Shown one piece after another: positions 2,049-46,933 of a DNA stretch of 64,000 nucleotides. The translations under genes were made by a program, and so were the position numbers. Position 1 is the first letter of the stretch. Every line of letters begins with the position of its first letter. The notes under the pieces were generated by a model, which was not told the origin of the DNA, made no database searches, and was given only the letters and a program-made list of their open reading frames with translations. Source of the DNA: Methanobacteriota archaeon (GTDB taxonomy: Archaea; Thermoplasmatota; Poseidoniia; Poseidoniales; Poseidoniaceae). The DNA is taken from NCBI GenBank assembly GCA_002722135.1, contig PBKJ01000027.1:75833-139832 (forward strand), written 5' to 3'.

Positions 2049-3893
2049 ATGGACGAGAAGCAGGGCCTCAACAGGCTCAGCACCGGAACCATCCTCGGTT
2101 CCACCATCGCCGTGTCCATCGTTGCGATTTTCCTTGCCATGATCGCTTCGCCGCTGGTCGAGGAGGGAATGCAGAGCAATCCCACCGCTGAGCTTCGCGT
2201 ACCGGTATGGGAAAGGGCCGGATTGCCGTATGACGTGACCTCAGATTTTGGTAGCGTGCTCGAACTTGGACCATACACGCCATTGGCGACACAGAACGAG
2301 TGGAATTCCACCCACGTGTTTGTCGAATACGAGTTGCCCCTGAGCGAAGGGGGAGCAGCAGCAACCGGACCCGTGATTTCCTTGGCGTACTGGCGCCCCG
2401 ACGTTCCGGAAGGCGTTCAAGTGCCGGTCATTGCGGAATTTGGACCCTATTTCCAAGAGCCAAGTGTCGAAACGCCGACGATTGAAGTGCCTGGGTCCTG
2501 GCTTGGCCAAATGGTCGTCGATCAGCTGCTGCCCCACGGCTATGCGTTCGCTCAGGTCTCCGTCACGGGGACTGGGCGCTCAAACCACTGCATGGACCTC
2601 ATGGGCTTCGCAGAGCAAGAGGGCGTGGATGCGGCCGTCACGTGGCTTGGAGCACAAAATTGGTCCAACGGCGCGGTCGCCATGATCGGCAAGTCGTACG
2701 ATGGGAGTACGCCATGGCAAGCCGCCATGTACGGCAACGAGGCCCTCAAGACCATCGTGCCCATTTCAGGATTGATTGGCGTCAAGGAACTCATGTGGCG
2801 GAACGGCTCTGCAGAAGCACGTGCGCCTATCATGCACAACGGCGTGTACGGTTCATACGGCCTTGATGGCGATGAAGAGGACTACCAGAACATCTGTCCA
2901 GACTACCTTATTGGCCCGGGTACTGGCGTTTCTGCTTGGTTTTTCGGCTCCGAAGTGGCCGGCGATTATTGGGCAGAACGGTATTTCTTGGACCGCGTGA
3001 TTGAGAACTACGAAGGAAGCGTGTACCTGATTCAAGGCATGCACGACTGGAACGTGGATCCACACATGGCCGTGCCAACGATGAACCGGTTGATCGATGC
3101 CGGTATCGAAGCGAGGGGTTTGTTTGGACAGTGGGACCACGATTATCCCGATCGGCCCGTGCAACTCGACGATCGCAGTGAGCTCGGTGGATGGGGAGGT
3201 GAAGCCTTCCCCCAGATGGTCCGCTACGATTGGATGCAGGACCTCCACGAATGGTTCGATTACTACCTCAAGGACATCGGACCACAACCTGGCCAGTGGA
3301 TTGAGGTCCAATCCAACCATGGTCAATGGCGCATCGAAGACCGCTATCCCCCTGCTGACACCACAGAGGTTGTGATGCAGCTGGGGGCTGAACTGTCGCT
3401 TGAGAGCGGTGGCTTGACGGTGCTGCCGGACACCACAACCGGCCCCACATGGACGTCCGAACCACTGGCCGAGGACATGCAGATTGTCGGCACGCCCCGA
3501 CTCCACGTCGAGGTCCGCACAGCGACCGTCGGTGGTCAGCTCTATGCCCTGCTCGAATCATGCAACGACGGCACATGCATCCACGTCGGCCATGCCATCA
3601 TGGACCTCAGGTACCATGCCGGTGGCGACGAGATTCAGACCTGGGCGGCGCCGCTTCAGACCATCACCGCACTGATGGAATTCATGCCGCTCGACGCTGA
3701 CGTTCAAGCAGGAGACACGTTGAGGTTGACCTTGTCGTCGACAGGGATGGATTACCTCCCTGCATCGACGTCCTCGGTGGTGACCGTACTGGAAGGTGAA
3801 GGGAGCACGCTCCAGTTGGACTTGGTCGACTTGGATCAACGACGCTTGTTCGACCCACCGGCATGCCTGCATGAGCGTTGTCTGGCGGTTTGA
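2049..3893 (+). CDS. Xaa-Pro dipeptidyl-peptidase / CocE-NonD family (peptidase S15) hydrolase with N-terminal signal-anchor helix
   Basis: ORF 1881..3893; motifs GKSYDGSTPWQAAMYG and a HD..D catalytic region typical of S15/CocE hydrolases. Internal ATG at 2049 (MDEKQGLNRLSTGT + hydrophobic helix) avoids overlap with the divergent hutU; an alternative ATG lies at 1998. Confidence 0.7.
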   Translation: MDEKQGLNRLSTGTILGSTIAVSIVAIFLAMIASPLVEEGMQSNPTAELRVPVWERAGLPYDVTSDFGSVLELGPYTPLATQNEWNSTHVFVEYELPLSEGGAAATGPVISLAYWRPDVPEGVQVPVIAEFGPYFQEPSVETPTIEVPGSWLGQMVVDQLLPHGYAFAQVSVTGTGRSNHCMDLMGFAEQEGVDAAVTWLGAQNWSNGAVAMIGKSYDGSTPWQAAMYGNEALKTIVPISGLIGVKELMWRNGSAEARAPIMHNGVYGSYGLDGDEEDYQNICPDYLIGPGTGVSAWFFGSEVAGDYWAERYFLDRVIENYEGSVYLIQGMHDWNVDPHMAVPTMNRLIDAGIEARGLFGQWDHDYPDRPVQLDDRSELGGWGGEAFPQMVRYDWMQDLHEWFDYYLKDIGPQPGQWIEVQSNHGQWRIEDRYPPADTTEVVMQLGAELSLESGGLTVLPDTTTGPTWTSEPLAEDMQIVGTPRLHVEVRTATVGGQLYALLESCNDGTCIHVGHAIMDLRYHAGGDEIQTWAAPLQTITALMEFMPLDADVQAGDTLRLTLSSTGMDYLPASTSSVVTVLEGEGSTLQLDLVDLDQRRLFDPPACLHERCLAV

Positions 3894-6216: not shown

Positions 6217-6996
6217 TCAAGACTTTGTGGCCGCTGAAGGCCATGGGCCCACGAATTGTGGATGTTCACCTGCCGCGAATCCCATCACAAGGATGCCGTG
6301 TTTCCGAGCAAGTTGAGCGGCTTGGCCGGACATCGCCCCAACACAGGCCACTTGTTGAATTCCGGTTCGAACGGCTTTGGCCATGAGGTCCCAACCGCAC
6401 CGACCGGAAAGGAGCAAAGCAGCGGGGCGCTGCTGGTCATGATCGACCAACCATGCTCCGATGACCTTGTCGACGGCCGTGTGCCGCCCGATGTCCTCAC
6501 GGAGCACATGATGCCCGTCGTGCGAGACCAACATTGCTGCATGAACCCCGCCCGTCTTCTCGAACATGGGTTGCAGTGCTTTCATCTCGCGCAGGATGGA
6601 CCTCAGTCGAGCGGAATCAAGTGCTGATTGACCAGCAAAGCGGACGCCGAGTGGGGGTGAGGCCATGGCGTCACCGCAACCACCGCACGACGGTTGAATG
6701 AGGCGAGATTCTCGGAGGGGGCCCCACGAAGACGCACCACTCATCCTCAAGGCGTATCCGTCCTCATGATGCTCGACCTCCACCAAAGGGAGTGGTCCCT
6801 CTCCGCTCCACCATCCCTCCGACAAAGCGTGCCCAATGGCAAACTCACGGAGATCATGAGGCGTGGCGAGAACGCTGACCTCGTGACCGGCTTCGGTGGT
6901 GAGCGCAACATAGGCTTCGTTGGCGAAGTCATCAACGCCGGGGACAAAACCGGAGCCGTCACGTCTCAGAATCGGAAGCCGTTGGGTCGACGTCAT
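6217..6996 (-). CDS. fdhD: Formate dehydrogenase accessory sulfurtransferase FdhD
   Basis: 259 aa; ...LLSGRCGWDLMAKAV...ACVGAMS motifs typical of FdhD; neighbour of the Mo-oxidoreductase. Confidence 0.75.
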   Translation of the reverse strand: MTSTQRLPILRRDGSGFVPGVDDFANEAYVALTTEAGHEVSVLATPHDLREFAIGHALSEGWWSGEGPLPLVEVEHHEDGYALRMSGASSWGPLRESRLIQPSCGGCGDAMASPPLGVRFAGQSALDSARLRSILREMKALQPMFEKTGGVHAAMLVSHDGHHVLREDIGRHTAVDKVIGAWLVDHDQQRPAALLLSGRCGWDLMAKAVRTGIQQVACVGAMSGQAAQLARKHGILVMGFAAGEHPQFVGPWPSAATKS

Positions 6997-11013: not shown

Positions 11014-13281
11014 TTATCGCACGCGAGATCCGTTGCTGATCGCGTCGCTCACGGTGAGAAGACGCACACACCCGTCCTCATCGTCGGCGGCCAACATCAT
11101 GCCTTCGCTCATCACGCCGCGAAGCTTTCGCGGAGCCAGATTGGCGACAACAACGACTTGGAGGCCCATCAAATCCTCCGCCGAATAGATGTCACGAAGG
11201 CCAGCGCAAATGGTTCGACCCTCCGCAGTACCGTCGTCCAATTGAACCACCCAAAGGCGGTCGGCGTTTGGATGCTCTTCAACAGAGGTCACCGTGGCTA
11301 TCCGCATGTCAACGGCCACGAATTGATCGAAGTCGATCGTGCTGATTCCTTCTCGTTCCATGTCTTTCGTCTCCTTTTTCTTGTTCCGTCGACTTCCTTT
11401 GACGCCACCCACTGACGGCTCGGTGGTCTTTGGTGCTGATTCGGCCACGTTTCCTTCGCGTTCAAGGATGGCCTCGAGGTCCAGGCGCGCAAAGAGCGGT
11501 GCGGGTTGATCGGTTGAGGCCGAGATCGTCGGCATCATGTTGACCGCTTCATCCCATGACACCTCACTGACGTCACCAGAATGCCCTTGCATGGCCCACA
11601 GACGCTGTGCGGCTCCGGGCAGGAAGGGTTGAATGGTGATGGCGATGCCTTTCAGCATCCGCGCAGCCAAAGCAAGGCCCGCGAAGGATTGAACCCTGAC
11701 CGATTCATCCGCGTCCGGTTTCAGGGCAACCCAAGGCGCAGCCCGTTGGACCACGCCGTTGCCTTGTTGAGCGATGTTCATGACGCCGCGCAAGGCTTCT
11801 TTGAAGCGATGGCGTTCGAGCGATTCCCCGACGGCGTCGTGTTGAGCATGCCATGATTTGACGTCCTCCAACCATGCCTCTGGCCGATCCCAATCCGCCA
11901 GTTCGCCAAGGCCAGCTTGGCGCAACTTCACAGTGAGGGTCAACACGCGGTGGGCAAAATTGCCGAATGCGGCAATCAGTTCCGAGTTGATTTTCTCGAC
12001 AAAGTCTTCCCAAGTGAAATCAGTGTCGTGATTCTCGGGCATGTTGATGGACAGGTAATATCGAAGCGTGTCAGGGTCGTGATGCTCGAGGAAGGACGGA
12101 AGCCACACTGCATGCTTCCTTGATTTGGAAAATTGGCCACCGCTCAGCATCAAGTACTCCATCGCTGGGACATCGTGCGGGAGCGCGAGGTCCCCCGGTT
12201 GAGGCAACGCTGGGTCGTCCACGCCACGCTTGGTCATGTTCAACCCAAGCAATATGGCAGGCCAGATGACCGTATGGAACGGGATGTTGTCCTTGCCCAA
12301 GAAGTACAGATGCCTTGGACTGTTTCCGTGCTCATCGACGCACCACCACGATCTCCAGGCCTCTTCGCCGAGCTGATGTTCGTTGGCATGCCGTTCTGCC
12401 CAAATCTGTGCGCACGTCAGATATCCTTGAACGGCTTCAAACCAAACGTAGACGCACTTGCCGTCCCAGTCTTCGTCCGCAAAGGGAACAGGAATCCCCC
12501 ACTCAAGGTCACGCGTCACGGCACGTGGGCGCAAGCCCATGTCCAACCACTGCTTCGTCATGGCACGAACGTTGGATTTCCACTGTTTGGAGGAATTGGA
12601 GGCGAAGGATTCCAAGGCACCTTGGAAGGCATCAAGCCGGTAGAACAGATGTTCGGTTTCCCTGACCTCAATCTGGCGTTCAGGGTTCATCTTGGAGCGA
12701 GGGTTGGTCAACTCGACGGATTCGTAGGTTGCCCCACACGTGTCGCATTGGTCTCCGCGGGCATCGTCTGCGCCACACGATGGACAGGTGCCCTCAACGT
12801 AACGGTCGGGCAGGAAACGTCCACCGTCTTCGTGAACCTCGAAGAACTGAGGCGTCGAACGCCGCTCAAACAATCCTGCTTCATCCAAACGCAAGACGTT
12901 GGCTTGAACACGATCAGCATGGGCGGGGTCGCTGGTCCGGTTGAAGAGGGCTCCTCCAAATTCCACGCCCCGGCGGTCGACGTGCTCAAACCACGCGCAC
13001 CCCAGATCTGAAAGCGCCTGCGTGTTGATGGCATGAAATCGGTTCACCACGTCCTGCGGAGAAATTCCTTCCCGCTCTGCGCTGACCGTGATGGGGGTTC
13101 CATGCTCATCCGAGCCAGACACCATCAGCACTTTCCGGCCCTTGGCGCGTTCATACCTGAATTGAATGTCGGGTGGAAGATAGCACCCCGCCACGTGACC
13201 AAGATGGAGCGGCCCATTGGCATAGGGCCACGCCACGCAGATCAACACGTGCTCGGTGGCGTCCATCGGTCCGCGGCTCAT
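11014..13281 (-). CDS. metG: Methionyl-tRNA synthetase with C-terminal EMAP/tRNA-binding domain
   Basis: HVLICVAWPYANGPLHLGHV (HIGH region), KMSKS-like region, Zn knuckle CPSCG..CDTCG, C-terminal OB tRNA-binding domain. The track ORF extends to 13797 with a non-homologous 172-aa extension overlapping the CNNM gene; start reassigned to M173. Confidence 0.85.
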   Translation of the reverse strand: MSRGPMDATEHVLICVAWPYANGPLHLGHVAGCYLPPDIQFRYERAKGRKVLMVSGSDEHGTPITVSAEREGISPQDVVNRFHAINTQALSDLGCAWFEHVDRRGVEFGGALFNRTSDPAHADRVQANVLRLDEAGLFERRSTPQFFEVHEDGGRFLPDRYVEGTCPSCGADDARGDQCDTCGATYESVELTNPRSKMNPERQIEVRETEHLFYRLDAFQGALESFASNSSKQWKSNVRAMTKQWLDMGLRPRAVTRDLEWGIPVPFADEDWDGKCVYVWFEAVQGYLTCAQIWAERHANEHQLGEEAWRSWWCVDEHGNSPRHLYFLGKDNIPFHTVIWPAILLGLNMTKRGVDDPALPQPGDLALPHDVPAMEYLMLSGGQFSKSRKHAVWLPSFLEHHDPDTLRYYLSINMPENHDTDFTWEDFVEKINSELIAAFGNFAHRVLTLTVKLRQAGLGELADWDRPEAWLEDVKSWHAQHDAVGESLERHRFKEALRGVMNIAQQGNGVVQRAAPWVALKPDADESVRVQSFAGLALAARMLKGIAITIQPFLPGAAQRLWAMQGHSGDVSEVSWDEAVNMMPTISASTDQPAPLFARLDLEAILEREGNVAESAPKTTEPSVGGVKGSRRNKKKETKDMEREGISTIDFDQFVAVDMRIATVTSVEEHPNADRLWVVQLDDGTAEGRTICAGLRDIYSAEDLMGLQVVVVANLAPRKLRGVMSEGMMLAADDEDGCVRLLTVSDAISNGSRVR

Positions 13282-13323
13282 GCCCACATCACTTAGGCCT
13301 TCTTGACGCAAGCACGCTCCGTC

Positions 13324-14469
13324 ATGTTGATGAGCATTGAACCTCTGCAAGGAACGTCTCTGACAGGGGCTCTCCACATCATGGTGCTCGAAGCGCTCGC
13401 GGCGGCCGGACCCGCCATCAACGCCACAGGGACAGGAGACGTCCGCCTGCTGACCTTCTATGTCGTCATCGCTTTGGGAATCTCCTTCCTTTGTTCGATC
13501 CTCGAAGCGGTCGTCCTCTCCGTCACGCAAACATGGGTGGCCGTGGAGAAAAACAATGGAAGCAAGACCGGAGAATTGTGGGCGGCCCTCAAGGAAGACG
13601 ACGCTGTAGGCCCACTGACCGCCATTCTCACGCTGAACACCATCTCTCACACCATGGGCGCTGCAGGCGTGGGATCCCAGGTCCAGCTCATCTACGGCGA
13701 CGGCGCCCTGACGCTGGCCTCCATCTTGCTGACGTTGGCCATGCTGTTGCTTTCCGAAATTGTTCCCAAGACGATCGGAGCAGCGTATTGGAAACAATTG
13801 GCCCGACCATGCGGGTCCCTGTTGCGGATTGTGGTGTGGTCCATGACCGTCCTCATCGTGCCAATCCAGATCCTCAAGCGCATTCTGCCGAAGGGGGAAT
13901 TGAACCTCGTCTCACGTGATGATGTCGCGGCATTGGCAGATTTGGGTGAGGAACGTGGCGTGCTCAACGAAGACGAGGAAGCCATCATCCACAACCTGTT
14001 GCGTCTCCGTGATATCATGGTGAAGGACGTCATGACGCCACGGACCGTGATGCAAACCGTCAACGCCGACGCAACGGTCTTGGAAGTGACCGAATCCATG
14101 CCGGTGCTTCGCTTTTCACGCATGCCTGTCCTCGGAGAGGGCACGGACGATGTGCTCGGTCTCGTGCTCCGTGCTCGCATATTGCGTGCGTCCTCCAACG
14201 ACGAACACGGCGCGACGATGAACGATTTGATGCAACCCATCACCCGTATTCGACTGGAGCAAAGCGTCGAGGAGGCCTTGGACCACTTCCTCGAATCGAA
14301 GCAACATTTCGCCTTGGTGACCAATGAATTCGGCGGAACCGAGGGTGCCGTCACACTGGAGGACGTCTTTGAGACCTTGATTGGTGAGGAAATCGTGGAC
14401 GAACTGGATGAAGTGGAAGACATGCGAGAGTATGCACGTGAACAGGCAGCCCTCAGCAGTGAGGAATGA
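13324..14469 (+). CDS. CNNM/CorC-family transporter-associated protein (DUF21 + CBS pair)
   Basis: Four N-terminal TM helices followed by tandem CBS domains; track start 13303 (TTG), first ATG at 13324. Confidence 0.75.
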   Translation: MLMSIEPLQGTSLTGALHIMVLEALAAAGPAINATGTGDVRLLTFYVVIALGISFLCSILEAVVLSVTQTWVAVEKNNGSKTGELWAALKEDDAVGPLTAILTLNTISHTMGAAGVGSQVQLIYGDGALTLASILLTLAMLLLSEIVPKTIGAAYWKQLARPCGSLLRIVVWSMTVLIVPIQILKRILPKGELNLVSRDDVAALADLGEERGVLNEDEEAIIHNLLRLRDIMVKDVMTPRTVMQTVNADATVLEVTESMPVLRFSRMPVLGEGTDDVLGLVLRARILRASSNDEHGATMNDLMQPITRIRLEQSVEEALDHFLESKQHFALVTNEFGGTEGAVTLEDVFETLIGEEIVDELDEVEDMREYAREQAALSSEE

Positions 14470-15304
14470 AGGCCTTTGATTCGAGCCACGCCATCATCGC
14501 AGCATCTCGTTCATGATGAAGCGAAGTTCCACTGTGCCGCAAGGTGGTCGAGCTCCAGACGTCAAGAAGGTCGTCAGGCATGCACGACCGGAGCATGTCG
14601 AGATGAACTGGGCCCAATCGGAGGTCAGGATCGGCCTGCATCACGAAGGTTGGAACCTCTGGTTTCCCCCAGCGGGGGACGTCCACATCGGCCATGTCGC
14701 TGATTGAAACACCCGGGTGCATGGTGTTCCATTCATCCATCAACCGTCGTGTCAATCGAGAGCGAAAACCTGGCAGCCAACGTGGCCAACGAAGGTCCGA
14801 AAAAATTTCATCGAAAATGGGTGAATAGCACGTCATCGGTGATTCGAGCAGTAAGGCTTCGACCCTGTCGCCATGTCGGCCGTGCAACAACCGCAGGGCA
14901 ACGTATGCCCCGAGGGAGTGACCGTGCAACAAGAGCTTGGTTGTGGTCATTCCTAAATCGCCGCCAAAAAGACCGTCGAGCAGATCCTCAAGACACTCAA
15001 GGACGCAATGTGCTGTCCACGGGCCGTTGTACGTCGACGAGCCATGGCCCAACGATTCGAGGAGAACCACGTGAAATCCCGCATCAGCAAGAGCTTGCGT
15101 GCGGTTACGGGCATGCGCGACACCCGACGTCCAACCGTGGACTGCAACGAGCGTTGGTGCAGGTTGTTCACGCAAGTTCACGTGAAACCTGTACGGTGCA
15201 CGCGGCCCCTCGCGAACGGTTGATGGCCAATTCGGATCGTCGAGCGGGGCCGTTGATTTGGGTGGGCCTTGGAGGAGGCGCCTGGTCAAGGCCTTGGCCA
15301 ACAT
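14453..15304 (-). CDS. Alpha/beta-fold hydrolase
   Basis: HGW..G oxyanion region and GHSLG nucleophile elbow; 17-nt convergent overlap with the CNNM gene. Confidence 0.6.
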   Translation of the reverse strand: MLAKALTRRLLQGPPKSTAPLDDPNWPSTVREGPRAPYRFHVNLREQPAPTLVAVHGWTSGVAHARNRTQALADAGFHVVLLESLGHGSSTYNGPWTAHCVLECLEDLLDGLFGGDLGMTTTKLLLHGHSLGAYVALRLLHGRHGDRVEALLLESPMTCYSPIFDEIFSDLRWPRWLPGFRSRLTRRLMDEWNTMHPGVSISDMADVDVPRWGKPEVPTFVMQADPDLRLGPVHLDMLRSCMPDDLLDVWSSTTLRHSGTSLHHERDAAMMAWLESKAFIPHC

Positions 15305-15307
15305 CCG

Positions 15308-16207
15308 TCATGCAGCGTCTTCGTCAGCGGCATCAGCGTCAGAAGCAGGCGCCTCGGTTGCTGCCGCAGCCTCAGCGGCTTCGGCGGCCTTCGCGGCGCG
15401 CTTCTCTGCGGCCTTTTGCTCACGGTCGGCTTGCCGTTGTGCGAAGCGGTCGCCCCAGTCGCCCATGCTTTCGAGGCGGAGGGCCCAGCCCGTGTTGCCT
15501 TCGCTCGCGGTTGGAACGTGCTTGACCAGGTAAGCGGAGAAGGCGCGGTCAAACATGCCCTGATTCAGTTCGCTGGCGCGCTTAAACTGGCGGTCGATGA
15601 TCATCAACGACATCATGAGCACGCCAACGCCGAACCAAATGATGCCGTTTGTGTCGCCGCCGTTGCCGAGTTCGCTCATGTTGAACATCACCAATGTCCC
15701 GCCAATCAAAAACAGGAAGCCAATCATGCTGTTGAGCACGGCGTGGATCTTGATTGGTGGGTTTCCTGATGCGCTGATGAACTTGGTTCGGGACACGAAC
15801 TGTCCAACGTTGCGGCCAAACCTGACTGGAATGATGAACACGTTCAGGGCGTAGAGTGCCATCGCGCCAAGGATTGAAGCAGAATTCGCCACGGTTGAAT
15901 TGACGAAAATCACGACGAAAGCTGCACCAATCAACATGCCGTAGTTGATGATGAAATTCGCCAACGAACCGGTGAACCGAGCGGTACCTGATGCAATCTC
16001 AAATTCGCTTGGAAGGCCCTTCGGTCGTGCCTTGGGCTTCTTCGCTTTCTTGGCTTTGGCCGCCTTGGCCGGCTGTGCGACCGGTTGAGCCGCAACGGCT
16101 GCGACGGGCACGGCCGCAGGAGCGGCTGCTGGTGCAGCCACGGGCACGGCTGCGGGGGCGGTTGGAGTCGTCGAGTTGGCCTTGTCAAGCAGTCCCATGG
16201 TGATCAC
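15308..16207 (-). CDS. RDD-family-like polytopic membrane protein with Pro/Ala/Lys-rich N-terminus and acidic Ala-rich C-terminus
   Basis: SGTARFTGSLANFIINYG...R...D pattern resembling the RDD family, 3-4 TM helices, low-complexity termini. Confidence 0.45.
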   Translation of the reverse strand: MITMGLLDKANSTTPTAPAAVPVAAPAAAPAAVPVAAVAAQPVAQPAKAAKAKKAKKPKARPKGLPSEFEIASGTARFTGSLANFIINYGMLIGAAFVVIFVNSTVANSASILGAMALYALNVFIIPVRFGRNVGQFVSRTKFISASGNPPIKIHAVLNSMIGFLFLIGGTLVMFNMSELGNGGDTNGIIWFGVGVLMMSLMIIDRQFKRASELNQGMFDRAFSAYLVKHVPTASEGNTGWALRLESMGDWGDRFAQRQADREQKAAEKRAAKAAEAAEAAAATEAPASDADAADEDAA

Positions 16208-16209
16208 GC

Positions 16210-17196
16210 TCAGCTGTATGTTGCGCCAATGCGGCTGTAAAGTGCAAAGTTTGGACTGGCCACGAAGGCCGAAATCGCCGATTCTGGCATGTCGCCCAGC
16301 AAGGCGTCAACCATGCTGAAGAATGCCACCCTGTCCTCATGTGAAGCGGCGGCCGGGTTTGTTCCGACACGCTGGTACAGTGAAAACTCAGGGCTTGCCA
16401 AGAAAGCGGCGACCGCTGCCTCAGGCAGGTCAGTTCCAAGAAGATGGTCGACCACGGCGACGAAGGATGGGAATTCGTCGGCCACCGGTTGGGCGACGGC
16501 TGCTGCCTCGACAGGCACAGCTGCGGCCACTGGCGCTGCTGCTGGAGCGCCCCGCAGAGCCCGGCGCTCTTCCATCAGGGCCCGGAGTTCGGGCCGCAGG
16601 GCTTCCAGGGTAGCGGCATCGTCGGATGCCTTGGCCGCTTCGTACTGGGGCTTGAGTTCGCGGAGACGGTTTTCGACCTGCGTCAAGCGGTCCATGGGTT
16701 GATCGGGTTCCACAGTTTCTGCATCAAGGAGTTCAACCGTGGGCGCATCCCTGACTTCTGCAATCCGGTCGTCGTGCATTTGCTTCCTGAGCACGATGAT
16801 TTCACGGTCCAGTTCATGCCCGAAACGATCGGCGTATCGGTCGAGCAGCGAACCTGCTTCTTTGTTCGTGAGACGATCGATGTGGCCGTACACCTGCTGA
16901 AGCGGTTTTTCCGTTCGCTTGGCCCACATTTCCGAGTAGGCATCAGCATCAGAGGGAACGGGCTGAGGTGCTTCTGCGGGCGCAGGAAGATCCGGTAGCG
17001 GTGCCGCTGGAGGAAGCTCTGGCAGCGGAGCCAAGTCCGGCAATGGCGCAGGAGGAGGGGCCTCAAGTGCCGGAAGAGGAGCCAAATCTGGAAGGGGTGG
17101 AGCAGCAGGAGCCTCGGCTGCAGCGGCCTTGCGTCGACGACGACCCATGGTGAACCCCGACCCTTCGTCGCACTGTGCCCCTTCAAGGTTCCTCAC
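16210..17196 (-). CDS. Hypothetical Pro/Ala-rich protein with PLPDLAPLPxL tandem repeats and an internally duplicated C-terminal module
   Basis: The N-terminal repeats are also visible as DNA tandem repeats. A coiled-coil-like middle is followed by two copies of F(V/F)xxVDxLLGxxPExAxxAFxASPxFxLYxRxG. No family recognised. Confidence 0.4.
   Translation of the reverse strand: MRNLEGAQCDEGSGFTMGRRRRKAAAAEAPAAPPLPDLAPLPALEAPPPAPLPDLAPLPELPPAAPLPDLPAPAEAPQPVPSDADAYSEMWAKRTEKPLQQVYGHIDRLTNKEAGSLLDRYADRFGHELDREIIVLRKQMHDDRIAEVRDAPTVELLDAETVEPDQPMDRLTQVENRLRELKPQYEAAKASDDAATLEALRPELRALMEERRALRGAPAAAPVAAAVPVEAAAVAQPVADEFPSFVAVVDHLLGTDLPEAAVAAFLASPEFSLYQRVGTNPAAASHEDRVAFFSMVDALLGDMPESAISAFVASPNFALYSRIGATYS
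16985..17140. repeat. Short in-frame tandem repeat (~33-36 nt units) encoding the (A)PLPDLAPLPEL repeats
   Basis: Repeated ...ggagccaagtccggcaatggcgcaggagga... / ...ggagccaaatctggaaggggtggagca... units on the plus strand. Confidence 0.4.
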
Positions 17197-17221
17197 GCCG
17201 GGGTCGCGTTCGGGTCAACCT

Positions 17222-18424
17222 TCACGCTACCTTTCGCGCCCAGCCCTTGAGGGAAAGGAAGACTTCCTCTGCCTCAGAAACCTCAACGACCTCACCGCTT
17301 GAAGCCTCGATTCTCCTCCCGTGGAGTCCAAAAACGGCATCGTCAACCGTCATCTCCATTCTACGGTCCACGTCACGACCGAACACCACGGCTTCGCTCA
17401 GAGCATCGTACGCGCCCGGTTGCTCGGGATTCAGCCTGGAGAGCGGAAGGGTCGACACACGCATGCCACACTTGCCGTGAAGGCTGGTCGGCCATCGGAT
17501 TTGCCGTCGGGTGTCGATGGTGACCACCTCGTCGGTTTCGCCTGCAGCGCCAAGCACGATCGAAGCATCGGTGGCCACCAGGTCGGCGAAGAGAATCTTG
17601 GGTCCATCCTTGAGGACGTTGAAATTCCCTTCAAGCAAACGTTCTGCCCGTCGTGGATCCGAGAGCGTTTCAGCCAACTTCCGTATGGCTGCAACGGAAT
17701 GTGGGCCTGAGGTGCGGCCTTCGTGTGCTCGCCGTCTTTGGACCCCATCGTGGAGGCGCGCAATGTCGTCTTTCGTGGTTTTACCGCTGATGATGCCCTG
17801 CAATGTTTCGACGGTGGTGGCGACGCCGTCCCGCACACGACGGCTCCATCCTCGGGCGTCGGTGTCACGGTACATCCCAAACCGTCCAGCGACGTCAACG
17901 CCTTCTCCTCGGATGTGCGCCACGAGTTCCCGGCGTGCATCCGAGTCAAGGTGGACGAGGGTTGGGTCCCTGTAGTGCAAGTGAAAGCCACGGTGCCCAG
18001 AGAAGGTGACGTGGAGGTGGTCCTCTTTGAATCCAAATTCAGGTTCCAAAAAGTCAGACCATAGGGTCCATGCTTGTTCTTGAATCAGCTCGAGCATCCC
18101 CGGGAAGTCCCGGTCTGATACCCCCGGGAGGTGGTCGCCGTCAAGGTCGAAAATCAGGTCGGCCCCAAGCCATTGTTTGTCGGCCATCTTCGCCTCAAAC
18201 GGCCGTTTCCAATATGCGGTTGAATAGAAACAGGAGTGCGTTGGGCGTTGAAGCAGAAACGAGCGAACGTCCTCCATCTTCGAGAACGATTGATGCCGAA
18301 GTGGGGCACCTTCGCCAAATGGGATGAACATCCATTCCCTTCTTGACAAGCGGGGCGGTTGCCAAAGCTCAGCGCTACGGTAGTAGCTGCTGAAACGATG
18401 CGCAACGCGCGCCCAGCCGTCCAT
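17222..18424 (-). CDS. priS: DNA primase small (catalytic) subunit PriS
   Basis: ADLIFDLDGDHL (DxD metal site) and FSGHRGFHLHY motifs of archaeo-eukaryotic primase; 400 aa. Confidence 0.75.
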   Translation of the reverse strand: MDGWARVAHRFSSYYRSAELWQPPRLSRREWMFIPFGEGAPLRHQSFSKMEDVRSFLLQRPTHSCFYSTAYWKRPFEAKMADKQWLGADLIFDLDGDHLPGVSDRDFPGMLELIQEQAWTLWSDFLEPEFGFKEDHLHVTFSGHRGFHLHYRDPTLVHLDSDARRELVAHIRGEGVDVAGRFGMYRDTDARGWSRRVRDGVATTVETLQGIISGKTTKDDIARLHDGVQRRRAHEGRTSGPHSVAAIRKLAETLSDPRRAERLLEGNFNVLKDGPKILFADLVATDASIVLGAAGETDEVVTIDTRRQIRWPTSLHGKCGMRVSTLPLSRLNPEQPGAYDALSEAVVFGRDVDRRMEMTVDDAVFGLHGRRIEASSGEVVEVSEAEEVFLSLKGWARKVA

Positions 18425-18463
18425 CGTACATCAGGCGGTGACGACACCGCTTGAACCCATGCC

Positions 18464-18667
18464 TCAGCGGGCGTAGAAGCGCTCAACGGTTTCGCCGACC
18501 ACCGTTGAGGTGTCGGCACCGGTTGCTTCGACGTAGCACGGCCAGCAGACGTAGTTGTTGTTGAGCACCATCGCAGCACCGAAGGTCATGCGCTTGTTGC
18601 ACATGCTGCATCGAGGACCAATTTCGCCGTTCGGGGCCTGCGCCAAGCGGACGTGATCGTGGGGCAT
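18464..18667 (-). CDS. Small CxxC...CxxC zinc-ribbon protein (hypothetical)
   Basis: 67 aa, CSMCN...CWPC; conserved position between the HEAT protein and priS. Confidence 0.35.
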   Translation of the reverse strand: MPHDHVRLAQAPNGEIGPRCSMCNKRMTFGAAMVLNNNYVCWPCYVEATGADTSTVVGETVERFYAR

Positions 18668-18715
18668 GTTGGGTCCTCCATGTGCTGCTGAGTGACGCGG
18701 GTTTTGAGGCTTCGC

Positions 18716-19189
18716 TCAAGGTTTCTCCCATTCGGCCCGTTCGCACCAATCGAGCAAATCGAGCGCAACTTCGCAAGATTCCGAAATCTCGGGCGCTGGG
18801 TGTTCGAGAAACCGCTGCAAAACGGAACGAGAGCGTGCATCGCCGATGGCGCCCATGGCTTCTGCCGCTTCATGGCGGACCATGACGTGCTCATCCTCGT
18901 CCGCCAGACGCTCCCAGAGCGTAGGGAGAGCACGCGGGTTTTGCATCTGTCCAAGCACGTAAGCCAACTCGTGACGCAACAGGGCGCTGGTGGAAGAAAA
19001 GGCGGCGCAGAGCGCATCAACTGCTTGGTCAGAGCCGTCGTTCCGCAACGCAAACACGGCCCGCATGCGTTGGAACATTCGCGCATCTTCGTCCTGAAGG
19101 ACAACCTGGTGATCCCCGTTGGTCGCAGGCGGCGCGGGGTCAACCGAACCGAAATCACTGACCTGAGGCGTGGCGTTGGTCACCTTCAC
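18716..19189 (-). CDS. HEAT-repeat (PBS-lyase-like) protein
   Basis: Repeating ...ALRNDGSDQAVDAL... / ...VRHEAAEAMGAIGD... HEAT-like units. Confidence 0.5.
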   Translation of the reverse strand: MKVTNATPQVSDFGSVDPAPPATNGDHQVVLQDEDARMFQRMRAVFALRNDGSDQAVDALCAAFSSTSALLRHELAYVLGQMQNPRALPTLWERLADEDEHVMVRHEAAEAMGAIGDARSRSVLQRFLEHPAPEISESCEVALDLLDWCERAEWEKP

Positions 19190-20079
19190 TCCTCCACGGC
19201 ACCGATGAAGGACATCGCTTCGACATCGAATCCAGAATCGACCATACCCGCTTCAATCCCTTCGCTGAGGAACCTGCGAATCGATGCCCGGCCTTCGGGC
19301 TTGTAGTCGATGGTGCGGTCGTTCACGTACATGCCGACGAAGGCTTCGTTCGTGTCATCGTCGATGCCTCGCCCCCATGCCTTCGCGAACTCAAGCGCCG
19401 CCTCTGGAGCGCGGATGGCGTGTTCAATGGACATCTTGGTGTATCGGGTGATGTCTTCCATCACCTGCTGACCAAGGTCACGCCGGACCACGTTGCCACC
19501 GAGCGGCATCGGCCAGCCGCCCGTGCGCTCATTCCACCACACGCCCAGGTCGATGATGACGTTGAGTTCGTGGTCCTTGTAGGTCAGCTGTCCCTCATGG
19601 ATGATGAGACCAGAGACGTAGCGACCTTCGATCACACCGGGCATGATTTCGTCAAAAGGCACGACTTCGATGGGAACGTCTCCCCACGCCAATCGAAGAC
19701 CGAGGTAAGCGCTCGTCTTGAGACCAGGGACGGCGATGGGCGATGCACGTGCTTCTTCCTCCGTCACGCCCGGTTTTGCGATAATCATCGGGCCGTAGCC
19801 CTCGCCCATGGAGGCTCCACAATTCATGAGGGCATAGCGGTCAGCGATGTCGGGAAACGCATGAATGGACACCGCGGAGACCTCGAGCTCGCTGTTCATG
19901 GCCCGGTGGTTCAGGGTCTCGATGTCTTGGAGTTCGTGCACAAACACATACCCAGGGGTTGGGAAAGCGCCGGTGGTCAGGGCATGGAACATGAACGCGT
20001 CATCGGGGTCGGGAGAGTGCCCGATGCGAACAATCTTCTCGCCGGCATCGTTTGTTGGCAGGTCTGCGGTCATGGGCAT
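19186..20079 (-). CDS. mqnD: 1,4-dihydroxy-6-naphthoate synthase MqnD (futalosine pathway)
   Basis: IGHSPDPDDAFMFHAL, DIETLN, IIHEGQLTY and DLGVWWNERTGGWPMPLG match MqnD. The track ORF (to 20352) has an implausible 91-aa N-terminal extension; start set to M92. Confidence 0.75.
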   Translation of the reverse strand: MPMTADLPTNDAGEKIVRIGHSPDPDDAFMFHALTTGAFPTPGYVFVHELQDIETLNHRAMNSELEVSAVSIHAFPDIADRYALMNCGASMGEGYGPMIIAKPGVTEEEARASPIAVPGLKTSAYLGLRLAWGDVPIEVVPFDEIMPGVIEGRYVSGLIIHEGQLTYKDHELNVIIDLGVWWNERTGGWPMPLGGNVVRRDLGQQVMEDITRYTKMSIEHAIRAPEAALEFAKAWGRGIDDDTNEAFVGMYVNDRTIDYKPEGRASIRRFLSEGIEAGMVDSGFDVEAMSFIGAVEE

Positions 20080-42073: not shown

Positions 42074-43684
42074 ATGCGTTGGGACGTGCTGTACCTCATT
42101 CTTGGTTGGACCGTTGGGGCCCTCACGGTCCCCTTGGCCCTCGTTGGCATCGCCACGGCCTTCCTCGATGACGTGCAGATGGCCCTCATCGCGTTCCTCC
42201 CATCCACGCTGCTCGCGATGGGCTCCAGTTGGCTGATGCTGCGCTACGGCACCACCCCAGAAACCCCGGACCGCTTACGGGACAGGGAAGCCTTCGCCAC
42301 CGTGGCGCTGGCCTATCCGGTCGTGGTGGCGTTTGGCGCCATGCCATTCTGGTTGGGCGGCATGTTTCATGGTCCATTTACCGCTGATGTCACCCTTCTT
42401 GCGGCCATGGAAGGCCTCATCCATTCTGGATTTGAAGCGATGTCAGGATTCACCACAACAGGGACGACCATCATCGACGTGTCCACCTCACCGAATTGCT
42501 TCGCGAACACCGAAGATTGCATCGGCGCCCAGTCGCGTGGGCTTCTGTTGTGGCGATCAACCATGCAGTGGTTGGGAGGCATGGGTGTTATCATGCTCAG
42601 CATGGTGGTCTTGTCACGGGTTTTGGGCGGTGGAATGGCCCTCGCCCGAGCCGAATTGACTGGCCCTTCCCTCTCCCGCCTACGCCCCAAGCTCGCGCAA
42701 ACCGCCCAAGCGTTGTGGATCATGTACCTCGTGCTGACCCTTCTCGAAATTGCGCTGCTCATTGGCCTGACGCCCATGAACACCTTCGAGGCCGTCAATC
42801 ACGGCCTGACCACGATGCCAAGCGGCGGTTTCTCGACCACCGACGACAGCATCGGTCACTGGGACTCCGCTGCTCTGGAATCGATCATCCTGGTGTTCAT
42901 GTTCCTGGCAGGTGTCAACTTCACGCTGCTCTACTTCATCGTCCAGCGGCAACCAGGGAAGATGTGGGCCGATGAGGAATTCAAGACCTACATCGCTTAC
43001 TTGGTCGGAGCCACGGCGATCATCACGGCTGCGCTGTACGTCAAGGGCGGAGACGTGGGAGGCGAGCCCTTGCGGAAATCCCTGTTCCAGGTGGTCGCCA
43101 TCGCGACCTCGACAGGATACGGCACGGCCGATTACATGCTGTGGCCCGTCATTGCACAAATCGTCATTCTGATGTTGATGGTGGTGGGCGCTTCTGCAGG
43201 TTCGACCGCAGGTGGTCTCAAACTGCTGCGCATCAGCCTCGCCGTGAAGGTGGCACGACGCCAATTGAACAGACTCACGCACCCGAGGCGAATCCACACC
43301 GTTCGAATGAACGGCGAGCAGGTTGAACAGGAACAAGTCGAACTGATCGTTGGCATGTTGCTTGTTTGGATTCTCCTCTTTGCCGGTGCCTCCTTGCTTC
43401 TCGCCCTGATCATGGCACCGATGGGCGAGGACCTCGACGTCTTGACCGTCATTGGCGTGACGGCAAGCGCGTTGGGCAACACCGGTCCCGCGATGGGTCA
43501 ATTCGGGCCGGCGGTCACCTGGGCCGCCATGCCAAACGGCGGGCTGATTTTGACGGGGATTTTGATGTGGTTCGGCCGTCTTGAACTCTTGACGGCTGTC
43601 ATCCTCTTTTCGCCATCCACGTGGCGGGAGCCGGGCGCGAGAAAGAAGGACGCCGACGAAGAGGATCAGAACAGCGTGGTCTGA
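42074..43684 (+). CDS. trkH: K+ transporter TrkH/KtrB family
   Basis: 536 aa, repeated M-P-M pore modules with GxG selectivity-filter-like glycines; directly downstream of trkA. Confidence 0.8.
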   Translation: MRWDVLYLILGWTVGALTVPLALVGIATAFLDDVQMALIAFLPSTLLAMGSSWLMLRYGTTPETPDRLRDREAFATVALAYPVVVAFGAMPFWLGGMFHGPFTADVTLLAAMEGLIHSGFEAMSGFTTTGTTIIDVSTSPNCFANTEDCIGAQSRGLLLWRSTMQWLGGMGVIMLSMVVLSRVLGGGMALARAELTGPSLSRLRPKLAQTAQALWIMYLVLTLLEIALLIGLTPMNTFEAVNHGLTTMPSGGFSTTDDSIGHWDSAALESIILVFMFLAGVNFTLLYFIVQRQPGKMWADEEFKTYIAYLVGATAIITAALYVKGGDVGGEPLRKSLFQVVAIATSTGYGTADYMLWPVIAQIVILMLMVVGASAGSTAGGLKLLRISLAVKVARRQLNRLTHPRRIHTVRMNGEQVEQEQVELIVGMLLVWILLFAGASLLLALIMAPMGEDLDVLTVIGVTASALGNTGPAMGQFGPAVTWAAMPNGGLILTGILMWFGRLELLTAVILFSPSTWREPGARKKDADEEDQNSVV

Positions 43685-45195
43685 CCGGCCGCAGGCGAGG
43701 CCGCTGAATCGTCCTCTGCATCGTCGCCCACGGGCGCTTCAACCACCGCAGCAGGTGCAGCAGGGGCATCCTGTTCGGATTCACGCTGAAGGCGCTCGCT
43801 GAGCACCTCATCATAACGGAGCATGAGGTCCTTGGCCGAGCGACGGCTGGTGGCAAGGCCCGTCAGCGCAACGTGTTCGTTGGAGGTCAGCCCGAGCCCG
43901 ATGGACATGTCGAGGTGCTCATGGTCGCCCATGCCCCCCTCTGCGCTGAGACCGGCGGAGAGGATCGGGAGGAGTTCGGCCCTCATGCCCACCACGCTCG
44001 CCCCGCAAGCATCACCCAGGGCTTCCGCCACGGAGGCCGTCCTGCTCGCCGTGCGGCGGAGGTGCGCAGGGTAATTCGTGTAGACCTTCTTCTGAACAGG
44101 CTCCGAATTGGCCACCGAGGCTGCCAAACTGCTGAGGTGAAGGGACCAGTAGGACGAACGATGCGCGGTGCTGAGGTAGCGGGAGGCTGCGGCGCGATCC
44201 GCGAGGATCAGGCTTGTCGCAGCACGGTCACGCGATGTTGCTTGCGTGAAGACGGACCCGTTGTTCCAGTGGACCCAGTCCACCAACTCAGCGGGATCCT
44301 TGTCGAGGCTCGATGCATGACGGACGGCCTCCTCAGCCGTTCGTGACTGGTACACGGAGCCGAGTCCGGGGAAGACCCCCATGGTCAAATCACGACCACC
44401 GCTCTGAATACGTCCCATGACGACCTCAGCCGTGAGCACGCGGTCAAATCCTTCACACAGCACTTGGAGGTCACGCACCAAGGCCCGCAGGTCACCCGGA
44501 TTGTGTTTGACGAGCAGGTCCAGGGCATCACCGTCGAAGGTCACGCCTTCTTCACGCAGCACACGACGCGCAATACGACGGATGGCATCGTTGGACACCC
44601 GGTCGAAGTTGAGCGTCAACACGTGCCGAGAAAAACGGTCACGGGTGGAGCGCCAGTTGGATCCTGAGCCCCACAGACGCATCACGTCGTTGCAGGCCAG
44701 CACAACGGGCTGACTGGTTTTCTCCAACAAGCGCAGCAGTTCTGCTTTTCCACCCGAGTCCCCTTTCAACGCCTCCTTGTCCTCGTCGTCCATCAATTGT
44801 CCTCGGACGCGCGCGTCGCTGACGGCGCGTAACCCGCCCGAGAGGTGGTCCACTTCATCGAGAAGAATGAGGGTGCGCTGGGCGGGTTCGTTTGGGTCGT
44901 GAAAGAGCGAACGGTGGGTTGCACCGTGCGTGGCCGCCCTCCGGATTGCAGCTGCGTTGCGGTCGTCGGAGGCGTTGAGCTCAATGACGCTCCACCCCAT
45001 GTCCGCCGCAACCGCACGGACGACGGACGTTTTGCCCACCCCCGGCGGTCCAACCAGGAGCACGCCGGGCCGCTTTGGACGTCCGGTCCGCCATTCCTCG
45101 AGCCACTCGCGGAGCTTGCTTCGCTGCGCATCGTTGCCCTCGAGTTGGCGTTCGGACGACGGGCGATGCCGCTCCGTCCAATCGCTCACGGGCAT
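43666..45195 (-). CDS. rfcL: Replication factor C large subunit
   Basis: WTERHRP... N-terminal box, Walker A GPPGVGKT, DEVD Walker B, SRC-like and sensor motifs; start set to the internal ATG (MPVSDW); 19-nt convergent overlap with trkH. Confidence 0.75.
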   Translation of the reverse strand: MPVSDWTERHRPSSERQLEGNDAQRSKLREWLEEWRTGRPKRPGVLLVGPPGVGKTSVVRAVAADMGWSVIELNASDDRNAAAIRRAATHGATHRSLFHDPNEPAQRTLILLDEVDHLSGGLRAVSDARVRGQLMDDEDKEALKGDSGGKAELLRLLEKTSQPVVLACNDVMRLWGSGSNWRSTRDRFSRHVLTLNFDRVSNDAIRRIARRVLREEGVTFDGDALDLLVKHNPGDLRALVRDLQVLCEGFDRVLTAEVVMGRIQSGGRDLTMGVFPGLGSVYQSRTAEEAVRHASSLDKDPAELVDWVHWNNGSVFTQATSRDRAATSLILADRAAASRYLSTAHRSSYWSLHLSSLAASVANSEPVQKKVYTNYPAHLRRTASRTASVAEALGDACGASVVGMRAELLPILSAGLSAEGGMGDHEHLDMSIGLGLTSNEHVALTGLATSRRSAKDLMLRYDEVLSERLQRESEQDAPAAPAAVVEAPVGDDAEDDSAASPAAGQTTLF

Positions 45196-45235
45196 AACGC
45201 CCTCTCGGTTACGACGGTGTATCAACCCGCCGTCA

Positions 45236-46933
45236 TCAGGGAGCAGCGAGACGTCGAACCGCGTCATCAACGGACATACGCGTTTGTTCTCCCGTGTCCC
45301 GATCGCGCCAAGTGACCGTGCCGTCTTCGAGCGACGTATGGTCCACGGTCAAGCAACACGGCACCCCGATTTCGTCCGCTCTTGCGTACCTGCGGCCGAT
45401 GGAACCGCTTCCGTCGTAACTGGCCAGAACGCCACGCGTCCCGCACAGGCGGCGGTGAACCTCTGAAGCCATGGTATCCATGCCCTCCTTCTCAAACAAG
45501 GGCAAAACGGCAGCATCGACGGGTGCAACATCAGGGTGGAGGCGCATGCGGACGTACATCTCCTCGCCCGAGCCAGATTCTTCGTAGGCGTGGTCCAGCA
45601 GGTGCCAAATGATGCGGTCGATGCCAAAAGCCGGTTCGACAACGTGTGGAATGAACCACTCGCCAGCCACCGTTTCGGTGCGCTGGACTCGCTTGACGTG
45701 CTCCTCCTCAACGAGGACCTCCTCACCGCCGTCGAGCACGACGGTCAGCGGGAAACTCGCCTCCGGCCCAAGTGCTTCCACCTTGGATTTGACTTGACCC
45801 GCGAGGGCTCGGAAGGCTGGACCGGCCTTCGCGCCGTCGATGGTCCATCCGTTGATTTCCACCACCTTCGGCTCAGGGTAATTCCTCCAAGCCCGCAGGC
45901 GTTGACCCGTGGCCTTCTCATGGGCTTCGAGGTCATAGCAGCCTCGATGGGCGATACCAACGCACTCGATCCACCCGTAGGAACCGTGGAGTTCGACGTC
46001 CCAGCAGTCCAGCGCGTAATGCGCCATCTCATCGCGCGCGTGCTGCCTGAATCGAAGTTTCTCGGCATCAACGCCAAGCGCCAGCATCAGGTCATGGGTG
46101 CGCGCCATGAACCATGCCACGGTCGGGTGGAGGATGACGCCCTGGGCGAGTGCAGTTGGGATTGAGGCAGCGAAGGCGTCGCCTTCGGCCGGGACCAACT
46201 GGACCTCCGTCGAGGCCCACGGGCTCAGATCATGCGGCGCCTCCGTTTCAGGATCAATGAAGTATTCCAACTCGGCCATGTTGAATTCGCGGAGGCGAAT
46301 CATCCCTTGCCGTGGTGAAATTTCATTCCGATAACCACGACCAAGTTGCATGGCACCAAAGGGCAAGCGCTCACGGAAGTGCCTGTAGATGGCAGGGTAG
46401 GTCGTGAACATGCCTTGGGCCGTTTCTGGGCGCAAAAAGGCAGCACGGCCAGACGAACCAGCGCCGATGACCGTGTCGAACATCAGGTTCTCAGCCGCCA
46501 CCGGGGACCACGATGCTTCGCCGCAGGCCGGACACGGAGGTTGTACGTCGTCGAGCAGGGCTTGCAGGTCGCTCAACGACAGGGCATCGGGATTTGCGTG
46601 GTGGGCTTCAAGCAGCGTGTCCGCCCTGCTCGCTTCGTCGCACGCGGTGCACACGGTCATGAAATCACTGAACTCAGCCACGTGCCCACTCGCTTCCAGG
46701 ACGGCGAATGGCGTGACCGTAGGGCACGAAATTTCGACCACATCGCCTTGGCTGAGCCAGTGATCCCGCCAGACGGATTGCACCTTGGAGCGAAGCCGGC
46801 CACCGACCGGTCCGAAATCGTAGAGCCCTTTGGCACCCCCATGGATCTCAAAGGCAGGAAGGATGATGCCACGACGGCGCAGCATACCGGTCAGACGTTC
46901 CAACCGCTCAACGGAGGCCTGAGGCTCCACCAT
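45236..46933 (-). CDS. glyS: Glycyl-tRNA synthetase (archaeal/eukaryotic alpha2 type)
   Basis: 565 aa, class II motifs, insertion domains and C-terminal anticodon-binding domain. Confidence 0.85.
   Translation of the reverse strand: MVEPQASVERLERLTGMLRRRGIILPAFEIHGGAKGLYDFGPVGGRLRSKVQSVWRDHWLSQGDVVEISCPTVTPFAVLEASGHVAEFSDFMTVCTACDEASRADTLLEAHHANPDALSLSDLQALLDDVQPPCPACGEASWSPVAAENLMFDTVIGAGSSGRAAFLRPETAQGMFTTYPAIYRHFRERLPFGAMQLGRGYRNEISPRQGMIRLREFNMAELEYFIDPETEAPHDLSPWASTEVQLVPAEGDAFAASIPTALAQGVILHPTVAWFMARTHDLMLALGVDAEKLRFRQHARDEMAHYALDCWDVELHGSYGWIECVGIAHRGCYDLEAHEKATGQRLRAWRNYPEPKVVEINGWTIDGAKAGPAFRALAGQVKSKVEALGPEASFPLTVVLDGGEEVLVEEEHVKRVQRTETVAGEWFIPHVVEPAFGIDRIIWHLLDHAYEESGSGEEMYVRMRLHPDVAPVDAAVLPLFEKEGMDTMASEVHRRLCGTRGVLASYDGSGSIGRRYARADEIGVPCCLTVDHTSLEDGTVTWRDRDTGEQTRMSVDDAVRRLAAP

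Follow-up and report, generated by a model that had tools for sequence, protein, structure and literature searches.

In this study, we analyzed a 64-kb stretch of DNA (contig PBKJ01000027.1; hereafter the window) from an archaeon of the Poseidoniaceae, Marine Group IIa (Poseidoniales), and within it the minus-strand genes priS, ORF2, ORF3 and an alpha/beta hydrolase gene. A first-pass annotation had read these four as a single operon built around the primase subunit. We think it fairly probable that the region is instead a composite of conserved neighbours. In this model, priS would be a housekeeping gene with its own TATA-like box, always preceded by the gene for a zinc-ribbon mini-protein (ZnR), and ORF2, ORF3 and the hydrolase gene would form a separate, tightly coupled unit read from a second, conserved TATA-like box before ORF2. 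The core of this unit would be an old pair, made up of a soluble, helical, Pro-rich protein of TP_0179 type and a membrane protein of RDD type whose N-terminus is an invariant MGLLDK and whose cytoplasmic tail is rich in Lys, Ala and Pro; the hydrolase, which has a membrane anchor in most relatives, would be an addition made in this lineage and dispensable to the pair. The two proteins probably form a membrane-associated complex, in which the ORF2 protein would dock on the cytoplasmic parts of the ORF3 protein, and neither would take part directly in priming. A link between priS and the pair possibly exists through shared regulation or through transcripts that read on from priS. The locus as a whole appears to be a conserved neighbourhood, particular to this lineage and built from known family types, and not a new primase operon.

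The gene order was followed through two sets of related loci. The close set comprises the best 80 species-representative loci of the Genome Taxonomy Database (GTDB), all but two of which are labelled Poseidoniaceae, Poseidonia or Poseidoniales. The distant set comprises 80 metagenome loci, found with a profile from distant ORF2 homologues, in which PriS shares 41-60% identity with that of the window; the cluster of one such homologue is labelled Marine Group II euryarchaeote MED-G38. In the close set, where PriS identity goes down to 58% and hydrolase identity down to 27%, every locus of sufficient length has the same order: MqnA, HEAT, ZnR, PriS, ORF2, ORF3, hydrolase and a convergent CNNM gene. 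ORF2 follows PriS in 72 of the 80 GTDB loci, the contigs of the other eight ending before this point, and ZnR stands directly upstream of PriS in all 80 (tblastn). Within the distant set, PriS lies upstream of ORF2 on the same strand in each informative case (27/27), an RDD-like ORF3 follows ORF2 (56/56), and ZnR again precedes PriS, even where the MqnA/HEAT genes are inverted. PriS-ORF2-ORF3 is kept in all of the approximately 150 related loci that are long enough, among them lineages with a PriS of just 41-50% identity, with rearrangements around the block that include the MqnA/HEAT inversion, a WD40 insertion, a strand change of CNNM and gain or loss of the hydrolase gene. Because the order persists in distant loci despite these rearranged flanks and the hydrolase gene is present in only 19 of 47 of them, the conserved block is ZnR-PriS-ORF2-ORF3, with the hydrolase facultative. 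The synteny comparison suggested by the first-pass annotation thus finds ORF2 and ORF3 beside priS in all informative loci, while the proposed coupling of priS to the hydrolase is not supported, the latter being absent from 28 of the 47 distant loci. Marine metagenome contigs, the longest of 173 kb, also carry identical copies of PriS. Two loci of Poseidoniaceae type, L012 (CAXRAI010000015.1) and L041 (NZEQ01000006.1), with PriS 92% and 61% identical, belong to metagenome-assembled genomes titled 'Salinimicrobium sp.' and 'Verrucomicrobiales bacterium', respectively, and are probably mis-binned contigs.

The reading of the four genes depends on where they start. All four minus-strand frames announced beforehand are found in the ORF listing: priS at 17222-18424 (400 aa; PF01896), ORF2 at 16210-17148 (312 aa from the ATG at 17148), ORF3 at 15308-16198 (296 aa from the ATG at 16198) and the hydrolase gene at 14453-15304 (283 aa). 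Between them, the reported spacing of 25, 2 and 3 nt applies to the mechanically longest frames only, which for ORF2 and ORF3 begin with GTG and span 16210-17196 (328 aa) and 15308-16207 (299 aa); with the conserved starts, the gaps become 73, 11 and 3 nt. Both starts, MGRRRRK... for ORF2 and MGLLDKA... for ORF3, are conserved over about 70 orthologous loci. At the ORF2 start position the relatives use ATG, GTG or TTG, and the basic N-terminus is kept as MG(L/R/F)RKGKK. Public gene callers start ORF2 at an internal Met (239 aa); conservation of the N-terminal motif shows the Pro-rich N-terminus to be translated. Across the family, the gap between PriS and ORF2 measures 73-100 nt, that between ORF2 and ORF3 mostly 5-14 nt, and that between ORF3 and the hydrolase gene mostly 2-30 nt. 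With all four genes on one strand, the 11- and 3-nt gaps of the window fit an operon, and the 73-nt gap is long enough for a promoter. ORF3 and the hydrolase gene have neither space nor box for a promoter of their own; as they start 11 and 3 nt after the preceding stops, co-transcription and translational coupling to ORF2 are most likely.

The spacer between priS and ORF2 carries the candidate promoter of this unit. The box GAGGAACCTTGAAGGGGCAC (17175-17194, minus strand), which we read as a putative B recognition element (BRE) and TATA element, is unique within the window and holds a TTGAAG core (17181-17186) 38 nt before the ORF2 ATG; the extended box is found once per locus in 78 loci. Most Poseidoniaceae have GGTAAGGTTCAAG(G/A) in this place and more distant lineages have GGAATGTTAAAACC, ACGTTAAAGG or GAACCTTCAAT. 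The TTNAAN box takes the form GTTAAAA, GTTAAAG or CTTCAAT in distant lineages, of which GTTAAAA and GTTAAAG in low-GC relatives look canonical. All 71 unique PriS-ORF2 spacers contain a TTNAAN core that starts at -38 to -42 from the ORF2 start codon. The TATA box of archaea is centred about 26-27 nt before the transcription start. In the window genome, hexamers of the class TT(C/G/A)AA(A/G/C) at -27 to -42 precede 8 of the 32 called genes, compared to 1.07 expected, and they start at exactly -29 for six genes and at -31 for PriS and one other. The motif TT(C/G)AA(A/G), often preceded by G and placed 29-31 nt before many starts, is therefore probably the TATA element of the window genome, and the spacer box is best read as such an element since its position fits archaeal promoter architecture. 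With a box at about -29, mRNAs would mostly be leaderless or have short leaders. The candidate promoter of PriS is the TATA-like box TTCAAG at 18450-18455 (minus strand), 31 nt upstream of its ATG, and 69 of the 79 unique ZnR-PriS spacers contain TTNAA[AGT] starting at -30 to -32 or -38 to -45. The predicted transcription units are ZnR, PriS and ORF2-ORF3-hydrolase. A single four-gene operon, as put forward in the first-pass annotation, is unlikely when the 73-100-nt gap between PriS and ORF2 always has a TATA-like box; rather than an unbroken unit, the 71 spacers suggest that an internal promoter is probably present.

Further examples of the TATA-like box are found at positions 6281, 10001 and 18032 of locus L001 and at 6465, 7876 and 16125 of L085 (same sequence as the window). 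An alternative role of the spacer box in a leader RNA, by pairing with the region after the Shine-Dalgarno sequence, was considered and rejected; single-sequence folds, made without a formal covariation test, were inconsistent between clades, and the idea was dropped because the box matched a promoter-type motif shared with other genes. The Rfam scan of 13000-20000 returned no match at E<=1, which disfavours a known RNA family in the spacer as well. Several relatives carry 7-bp perfect inverted repeats with a 3-nt spacer (CACCAAC-N3-GTTGGTG, ACCATAC-N3-GTATGGT) between the priS stop and the TATA-like box of ORF2, namely L115, L119 and L139, where they sit just after the stop, as well as the L053-type loci, L142 and L158. 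These repeats, which have no clear equivalent in the window clade, could be an operator or a hairpin at the transcript 3' end.

The ORF2 protein begins with a basic N-terminus and a Pro/Ala-rich stretch, continues with a strongly conserved YGHIDR...GSLLDRYADRFGHELDREIIVLRK domain and a helical hairpin and, after an Ala-rich linker, ends in a double helical repeat; it has no hydrophobic segment. Its earlier description as a Pro/Ala-rich repeat protein is right for residues ~8-65, which are indeed rich in Pro and Ala; it does not suit the remainder, given that about 250 residues are conserved helical domains and that Tandem Repeats Finder detected no DNA tandem repeat under the Pro-rich region. 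The AlphaFold2 model is all-helical with a pLDDT of 75.6, and values exceed 87 for the hairpin and the C-terminal repeat (model residues 164-249 for the double repeat). None of the solved structures compared is similar, and the family is narrow: a threshold of E<=1e-3 leaves 188 representatives out of 1.84 billion. For ORF2, the Pfam and NCBIfam scans gave nothing usable, with a sub-threshold DUF4416 as the sole hit in Pfam. The double repeat (16213-16473, minus strand), in which F..FV..VD.LLG..LPE..V..F..S..F.LY..VG occurs twice, is the ORF2 segment corresponding to PF27359 'TP_0179', a family named after a hypothetical protein of Treponema pallidum. For the window protein this link runs via the precomputed annotation of homologues and not via its own score: PF27359 is assigned to homologues that are 75-91% identical (P0003, P0006, P0009, P0012, P0013, P0017) and is listed as 'TP_0179 (weak)' for the distant homologue P0206. 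In the accessible text of the papers that name TP0179, which are Treponema genomics and evolution studies, no function was found for it. We also tried ORF2 as a divergent Gins51, PriL, PriX or any other replication protein, and rejected these candidates for want of sequence or fold similarity. Among homologues from other Marine Group II lineages, an EF-hand insertion DKDNSGTIDFNE is seen in L087 527-1453 (P0148, with a Pfam EF-hand_1 match) and L089 26-988 (P0154), and N-terminal extensions bring P0132 and P0137 to a total of 500-580 aa.

ORF3, with several hydrophobic segments, appears to be a divergent RDD-type membrane protein. Its invariant MGLLDK is followed by an Ala/Pro/Lys-rich tail, an RDD-type domain with some four hydrophobic segments (four to five when counted by 19-residue windows) and a conserved C-terminal region with ...QG.(F/Y)D...YLVKH... 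and RLESMG.(W/F)GD. Its previous label, RDD-like, is sustained by these segments and by the orthologues, of which 8 out of 12 match PF06271 (best E 1.9e-5); the window protein itself has no match to this family at E<=1 and gave nothing usable in the Pfam and NCBIfam scans. In the alignment, with correspondence judged by eye, R74 and D217 are invariant, and an equally invariant Asn (N81) stands where the family has its first Asp; we take these three residues to stand for the Arg-Asp-Asp after which the RDD family is named. The layout presumably also matches that of the family: an N-terminal Arg precedes the first hydrophobic segment, the loop reads G-R-x-(L/I)-G-x-F-V-S-R-T-K, and Q-G-x-(Y/F)-D comes last. 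Apart from the Asn, ORF3 differs from other members of PF06271 in its MGLLDK N-terminus, its long Ala/Pro/Lys and Ala/Glu tails and its constant partner of ORF2 type. In relatives the tail has KPVAKA repeats, and for one orthologue there is a weak, low-complexity match to the histone-H1-like HC2 family (E 0.022).

The pair formed by ORF2 and ORF3 is not confined to the neighbourhood of priS. Outside Poseidoniales, loci L092-L094 carry a VWA gene, an ORF2-like gene (TP_0179 weak) and then an RDD gene with overlapping stop and start, and there is no PriS on these contigs of 6.3-8.6 kb. The ORF2-like proteins have a Pro/Lys-rich N-terminus, an IDRM...RF.RKFG segment and the TP_0179-type double repeat, and their RDD partners, which begin with MGLLDKA, have a strong precomputed PF06271 match. 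A further distant lineage, L091, encodes an ORF2-like protein (17-874), an RDD protein beginning with MGLLDE (981-2048) and a fragment of FtsZ (2758-3291; GCGGAGNN...GGGTGTGA). Because the pair occurs without PriS in other lineages, the association of an ORF2-type with an RDD protein is the older one and its place beside priS specific to Poseidoniales. A PriS-specific role for ORF2 and ORF3, as the first-pass annotation implied, is accordingly not supported. The TP_0179-type double repeat is also found at the C-terminus of otherwise unrelated proteins, including a DnaA-like AAA+ protein, a membrane protein and a P-loop ATPase that contains a long coiled coil, which fits an interaction or adaptor module. 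The DnaA-like case comes from Candidatus Altiarchaeales, where a 'DnaA' with a Bac_DnaA AAA+ domain ends in the repeat (P0227, P0300; L096, L177 7001-8476, L178) and is followed by an overlapping gene for a 418-aa protein with a weak DUF2226 match. The idea that the module always stands beside an RDD gene fails on this very example, in which the neighbour is the weak-DUF2226 gene.

In the case of priS, the identification made beforehand is well founded: the protein scores 56.6 bits against PF01896 in the Pfam scan (cut-off 26.8; E 5.1e-15) and aligns to solved PriS proteins. The NCBIfam PriS models yield E 2.5e-57, yet the scores stay under their strict equivalog cut-offs of 577, 326 and 143.5 bits. 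FDLDGDH, FSGHRGFHLH and IRWPTSLHGKCG align to PriS of S. solfataricus (1zt2) and P. furiosus (1g71), RWPTSLHGK being the third segment aligned to both. We take three elements, the acidic DxD, the sGxRGxH and a C-terminal R.P.S.H.K.G segment, to be the catalytic motifs of the archaeo-eukaryotic primases (AEP); priS apparently encodes an intact catalytic subunit. The residues of the zinc knuckle, which the solved Pyrococcus and Sulfolobus proteins have, are absent, as 'lkrCnHepgtvCpiC' of P. furiosus faces 'vsdrdfpgml.eli' in the alignment to 1g71, and an insertion of S. solfataricus PriS (residues ~109-157) has no counterpart. The knuckle is a variable feature of PriS, so that its absence does not exclude membership. 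Directly upstream, ZnR (18464-18667, minus strand; 67 aa) carries a CxxC...CxxC arrangement and ends 39 nt before PriS. It forms 34 protein clusters, all Poseidoniales-like, with a weak LIM match as its Pfam result, and could supply a zinc module in trans to the knuckle-less PriS.

The context of priS had been called unexpected on the assumption that PriS is normally paired with PriL or replication genes, and indeed there is no PriL (PF04104-type) among the genes annotated across the window. Several well-studied archaea have priS and priL at unlinked positions. Compared to the PriS-PriL primase (with PriX in Sulfolobales), the window PriS shares the catalytic motifs and differs in the missing knuckle and in having neighbours unlike PriL or PriX. 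The neighbour named in the literature is Gins51, which is frequently found beside archaeal priS and whose co-localisation has been lost in many species (Swiatek and MacNeill, 2010; PMC2861644), so a priS without a nearby priL is unsurprising in itself and the premise of a usual pairing with PriL is not supported. The PriS-Gins51 neighbourhood resembles the window in that a co-directional gene lies directly downstream of priS and is kept over a large clade. The window is set apart by ORF2, which has no detectable similarity to GINS in sequence or fold, by the 73-100-nt spacer with its own TATA-like box and by the membrane-protein partner.

Several observations weigh against a division of the locus into separate units. 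The ZnR-PriS-ORF2-ORF3 block is never broken although both of its flanks are rearranged, which argues for a selective link. A T5 or longer tract is present in only 6 of the 71 PriS-ORF2 spacers, and as most spacers thus have no oligo-T terminator, read-through from priS into ORF2 is possible. The fusion of a TP_0179-type module to a DnaA-like AAA+ protein provides a second connection to a replication-type protein. In addition, the TATA assignment is drawn from motif position, enrichment and conservation, and the P value of the enrichment (~1.6e-5) is optimistic given that the hexamer motif was defined after inspection of the data.

The unbroken block, the scarcity of oligo-T terminators and the DnaA-like fusion also speak for a single priS-ORF2-ORF3-hydrolase operon, in which ORF2 and ORF3 would act with primase, for instance by tethering primase, the replisome or nascent DNA to the membrane, and in which ORF2 would occupy the genomic position of Gins51, the usual downstream neighbour of PriS (PMC2861644). 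The KPVAKA repeats of the ORF3 relatives and the HC2 match could be added to them. We nevertheless regard such an operon as unlikely, since a promoter-type box is present in every spacer, the ORF2-like/RDD pair exists elsewhere without PriS, ORF2 resembles no replication protein in sequence or fold, the hydrolase is dispensable and the HC2 match is one of low complexity.

Alternatively, ORF2 and ORF3 could constitute a module for cell division or envelope organisation, with the membrane anchor and the Pro-rich scaffold recruiting cytoskeletal or division proteins and the adjacency to priS being historical. The FtsZ fragment behind the pair in L091, the most distant locus, points in this direction, and so does the combination of a membrane protein with a soluble, scaffold-like protein that has a long Pro-rich spacer and a coiled-coil hairpin; the EF-hand insertion of some Marine Group II homologues suggests regulation. 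We judge this explanation improbable: the FtsZ neighbour is a single case on a 3.3-kb contig, no such gene lies near the pair in the Poseidoniales loci, and no similarity to SepF, CdvA, ESCRT-III or other division proteins was detected beyond generic helical matches. Searches of the literature on RDD proteins with archaeal cell division and on Poseidoniales with primase yielded nothing on function or on the ZnR-PriS-ORF2-ORF3 block.

A more specific proposal is that ZnR-PriS-ORF2-ORF3 is a replication module particular to Poseidoniales, where the knuckle-less PriS would work with ZnR, ORF2 would fill the slot of Gins51, and the RDD partner with its Lys/Ala/Pro-rich tail would couple primase or the replisome to the membrane. 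Under this proposal, the DnaA-like fusion of the Altiarchaeales would point independently to replication, and yet we give the full scheme little credence. For a direct replication link of ORF2 and ORF3 in any form, the probability remains low; it is kept alive by an adjacency that is never broken, a position like that of Gins51, the DnaA-like fusion and the knuckle-less PriS beside a zinc ribbon. Neutral inherited synteny without functional or regulatory meaning, for which it can be said that all loci with PriS beside the pair belong to the one order Poseidoniales and that much of the surrounding 20 kb is collinear within Poseidoniaceae, is improbable as well, for the breakpoints (MqnA/HEAT inversion, WD40 insertion, hydrolase loss, CNNM flip) fall directly on both sides of ZnR-PriS-ORF2-ORF3 and never inside.

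Marine Group II counts among the most abundant groups of planktonic archaea. To our knowledge, none of its members is in culture, and their biology is inferred from genomes alone. The composite organization preferred here provides a firm gene structure, with starts and likely promoters, for a block that gene callers annotate inconsistently, and it identifies the TP_0179-type helical protein and the MGLLDK-RDD membrane protein as a conserved pair worth testing. The working TATA-like consensus TT(C/G)AA(A/G), about 29 nt before starts, may aid annotation of the window genome. If a replication role proved true, the block would represent a lineage-specific connection of primase to the membrane, in which the zinc module of PriS is split off; otherwise, the locus would illustrate that tight spacing and conserved order alone do not make an operon.

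The hydrolase, an optional neighbour of the conserved block, is confirmed as a member of the alpha/beta fold by three Pfam families scoring above their cut-offs: Abhydrolase_6 (46.4 versus 26.3 bits), Hydrolase_4 (42.2 versus 27) and Abhydrolase_1 (37.4 versus 25.8). Like the serine hydrolases of this fold, it has a nucleophile elbow, GHSLG in the window and recognizable in 47 of 61 orthologues. Among solved structures, the nearest ones are weak matches. An assignment as MenH (SHCHC synthase) was tempting given the futalosine-pathway Mqn genes upstream, but it was rejected with 30.9 bits against a TIGR03695 cut-off of 208.55 (208.6) bits. In a further difference from MenH, most orthologues are membrane-anchored. 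The gene is present in all informative Poseidoniaceae loci. An N-terminal hydrophobic segment occurs in 53 of 61 orthologues (311-339 aa; L015-L084) and is missing in the window clade (278-283 aa), whose hydrolase may have turned soluble.

The co-directional run extends beyond the four genes: upstream come ZnR, the gene for a HEAT protein, and three Mqn genes, two of them MqnA-like and one MqnC-like. On the other side, the CNNM/CBS gene (13303-14469, plus strand) converges on the hydrolase gene, with an overlap of 17 nt between their 3' ends (14453-14469). Elsewhere in the window, 25-35 kb from priS, lie the genes for a 534-aa AAA+ protein with Rad17/RFC-type P-loop matches (43666-45270, minus strand), possibly the RFC large subunit, and for an Lhr-type helicase of 1762 aa (47409-52697, plus strand).

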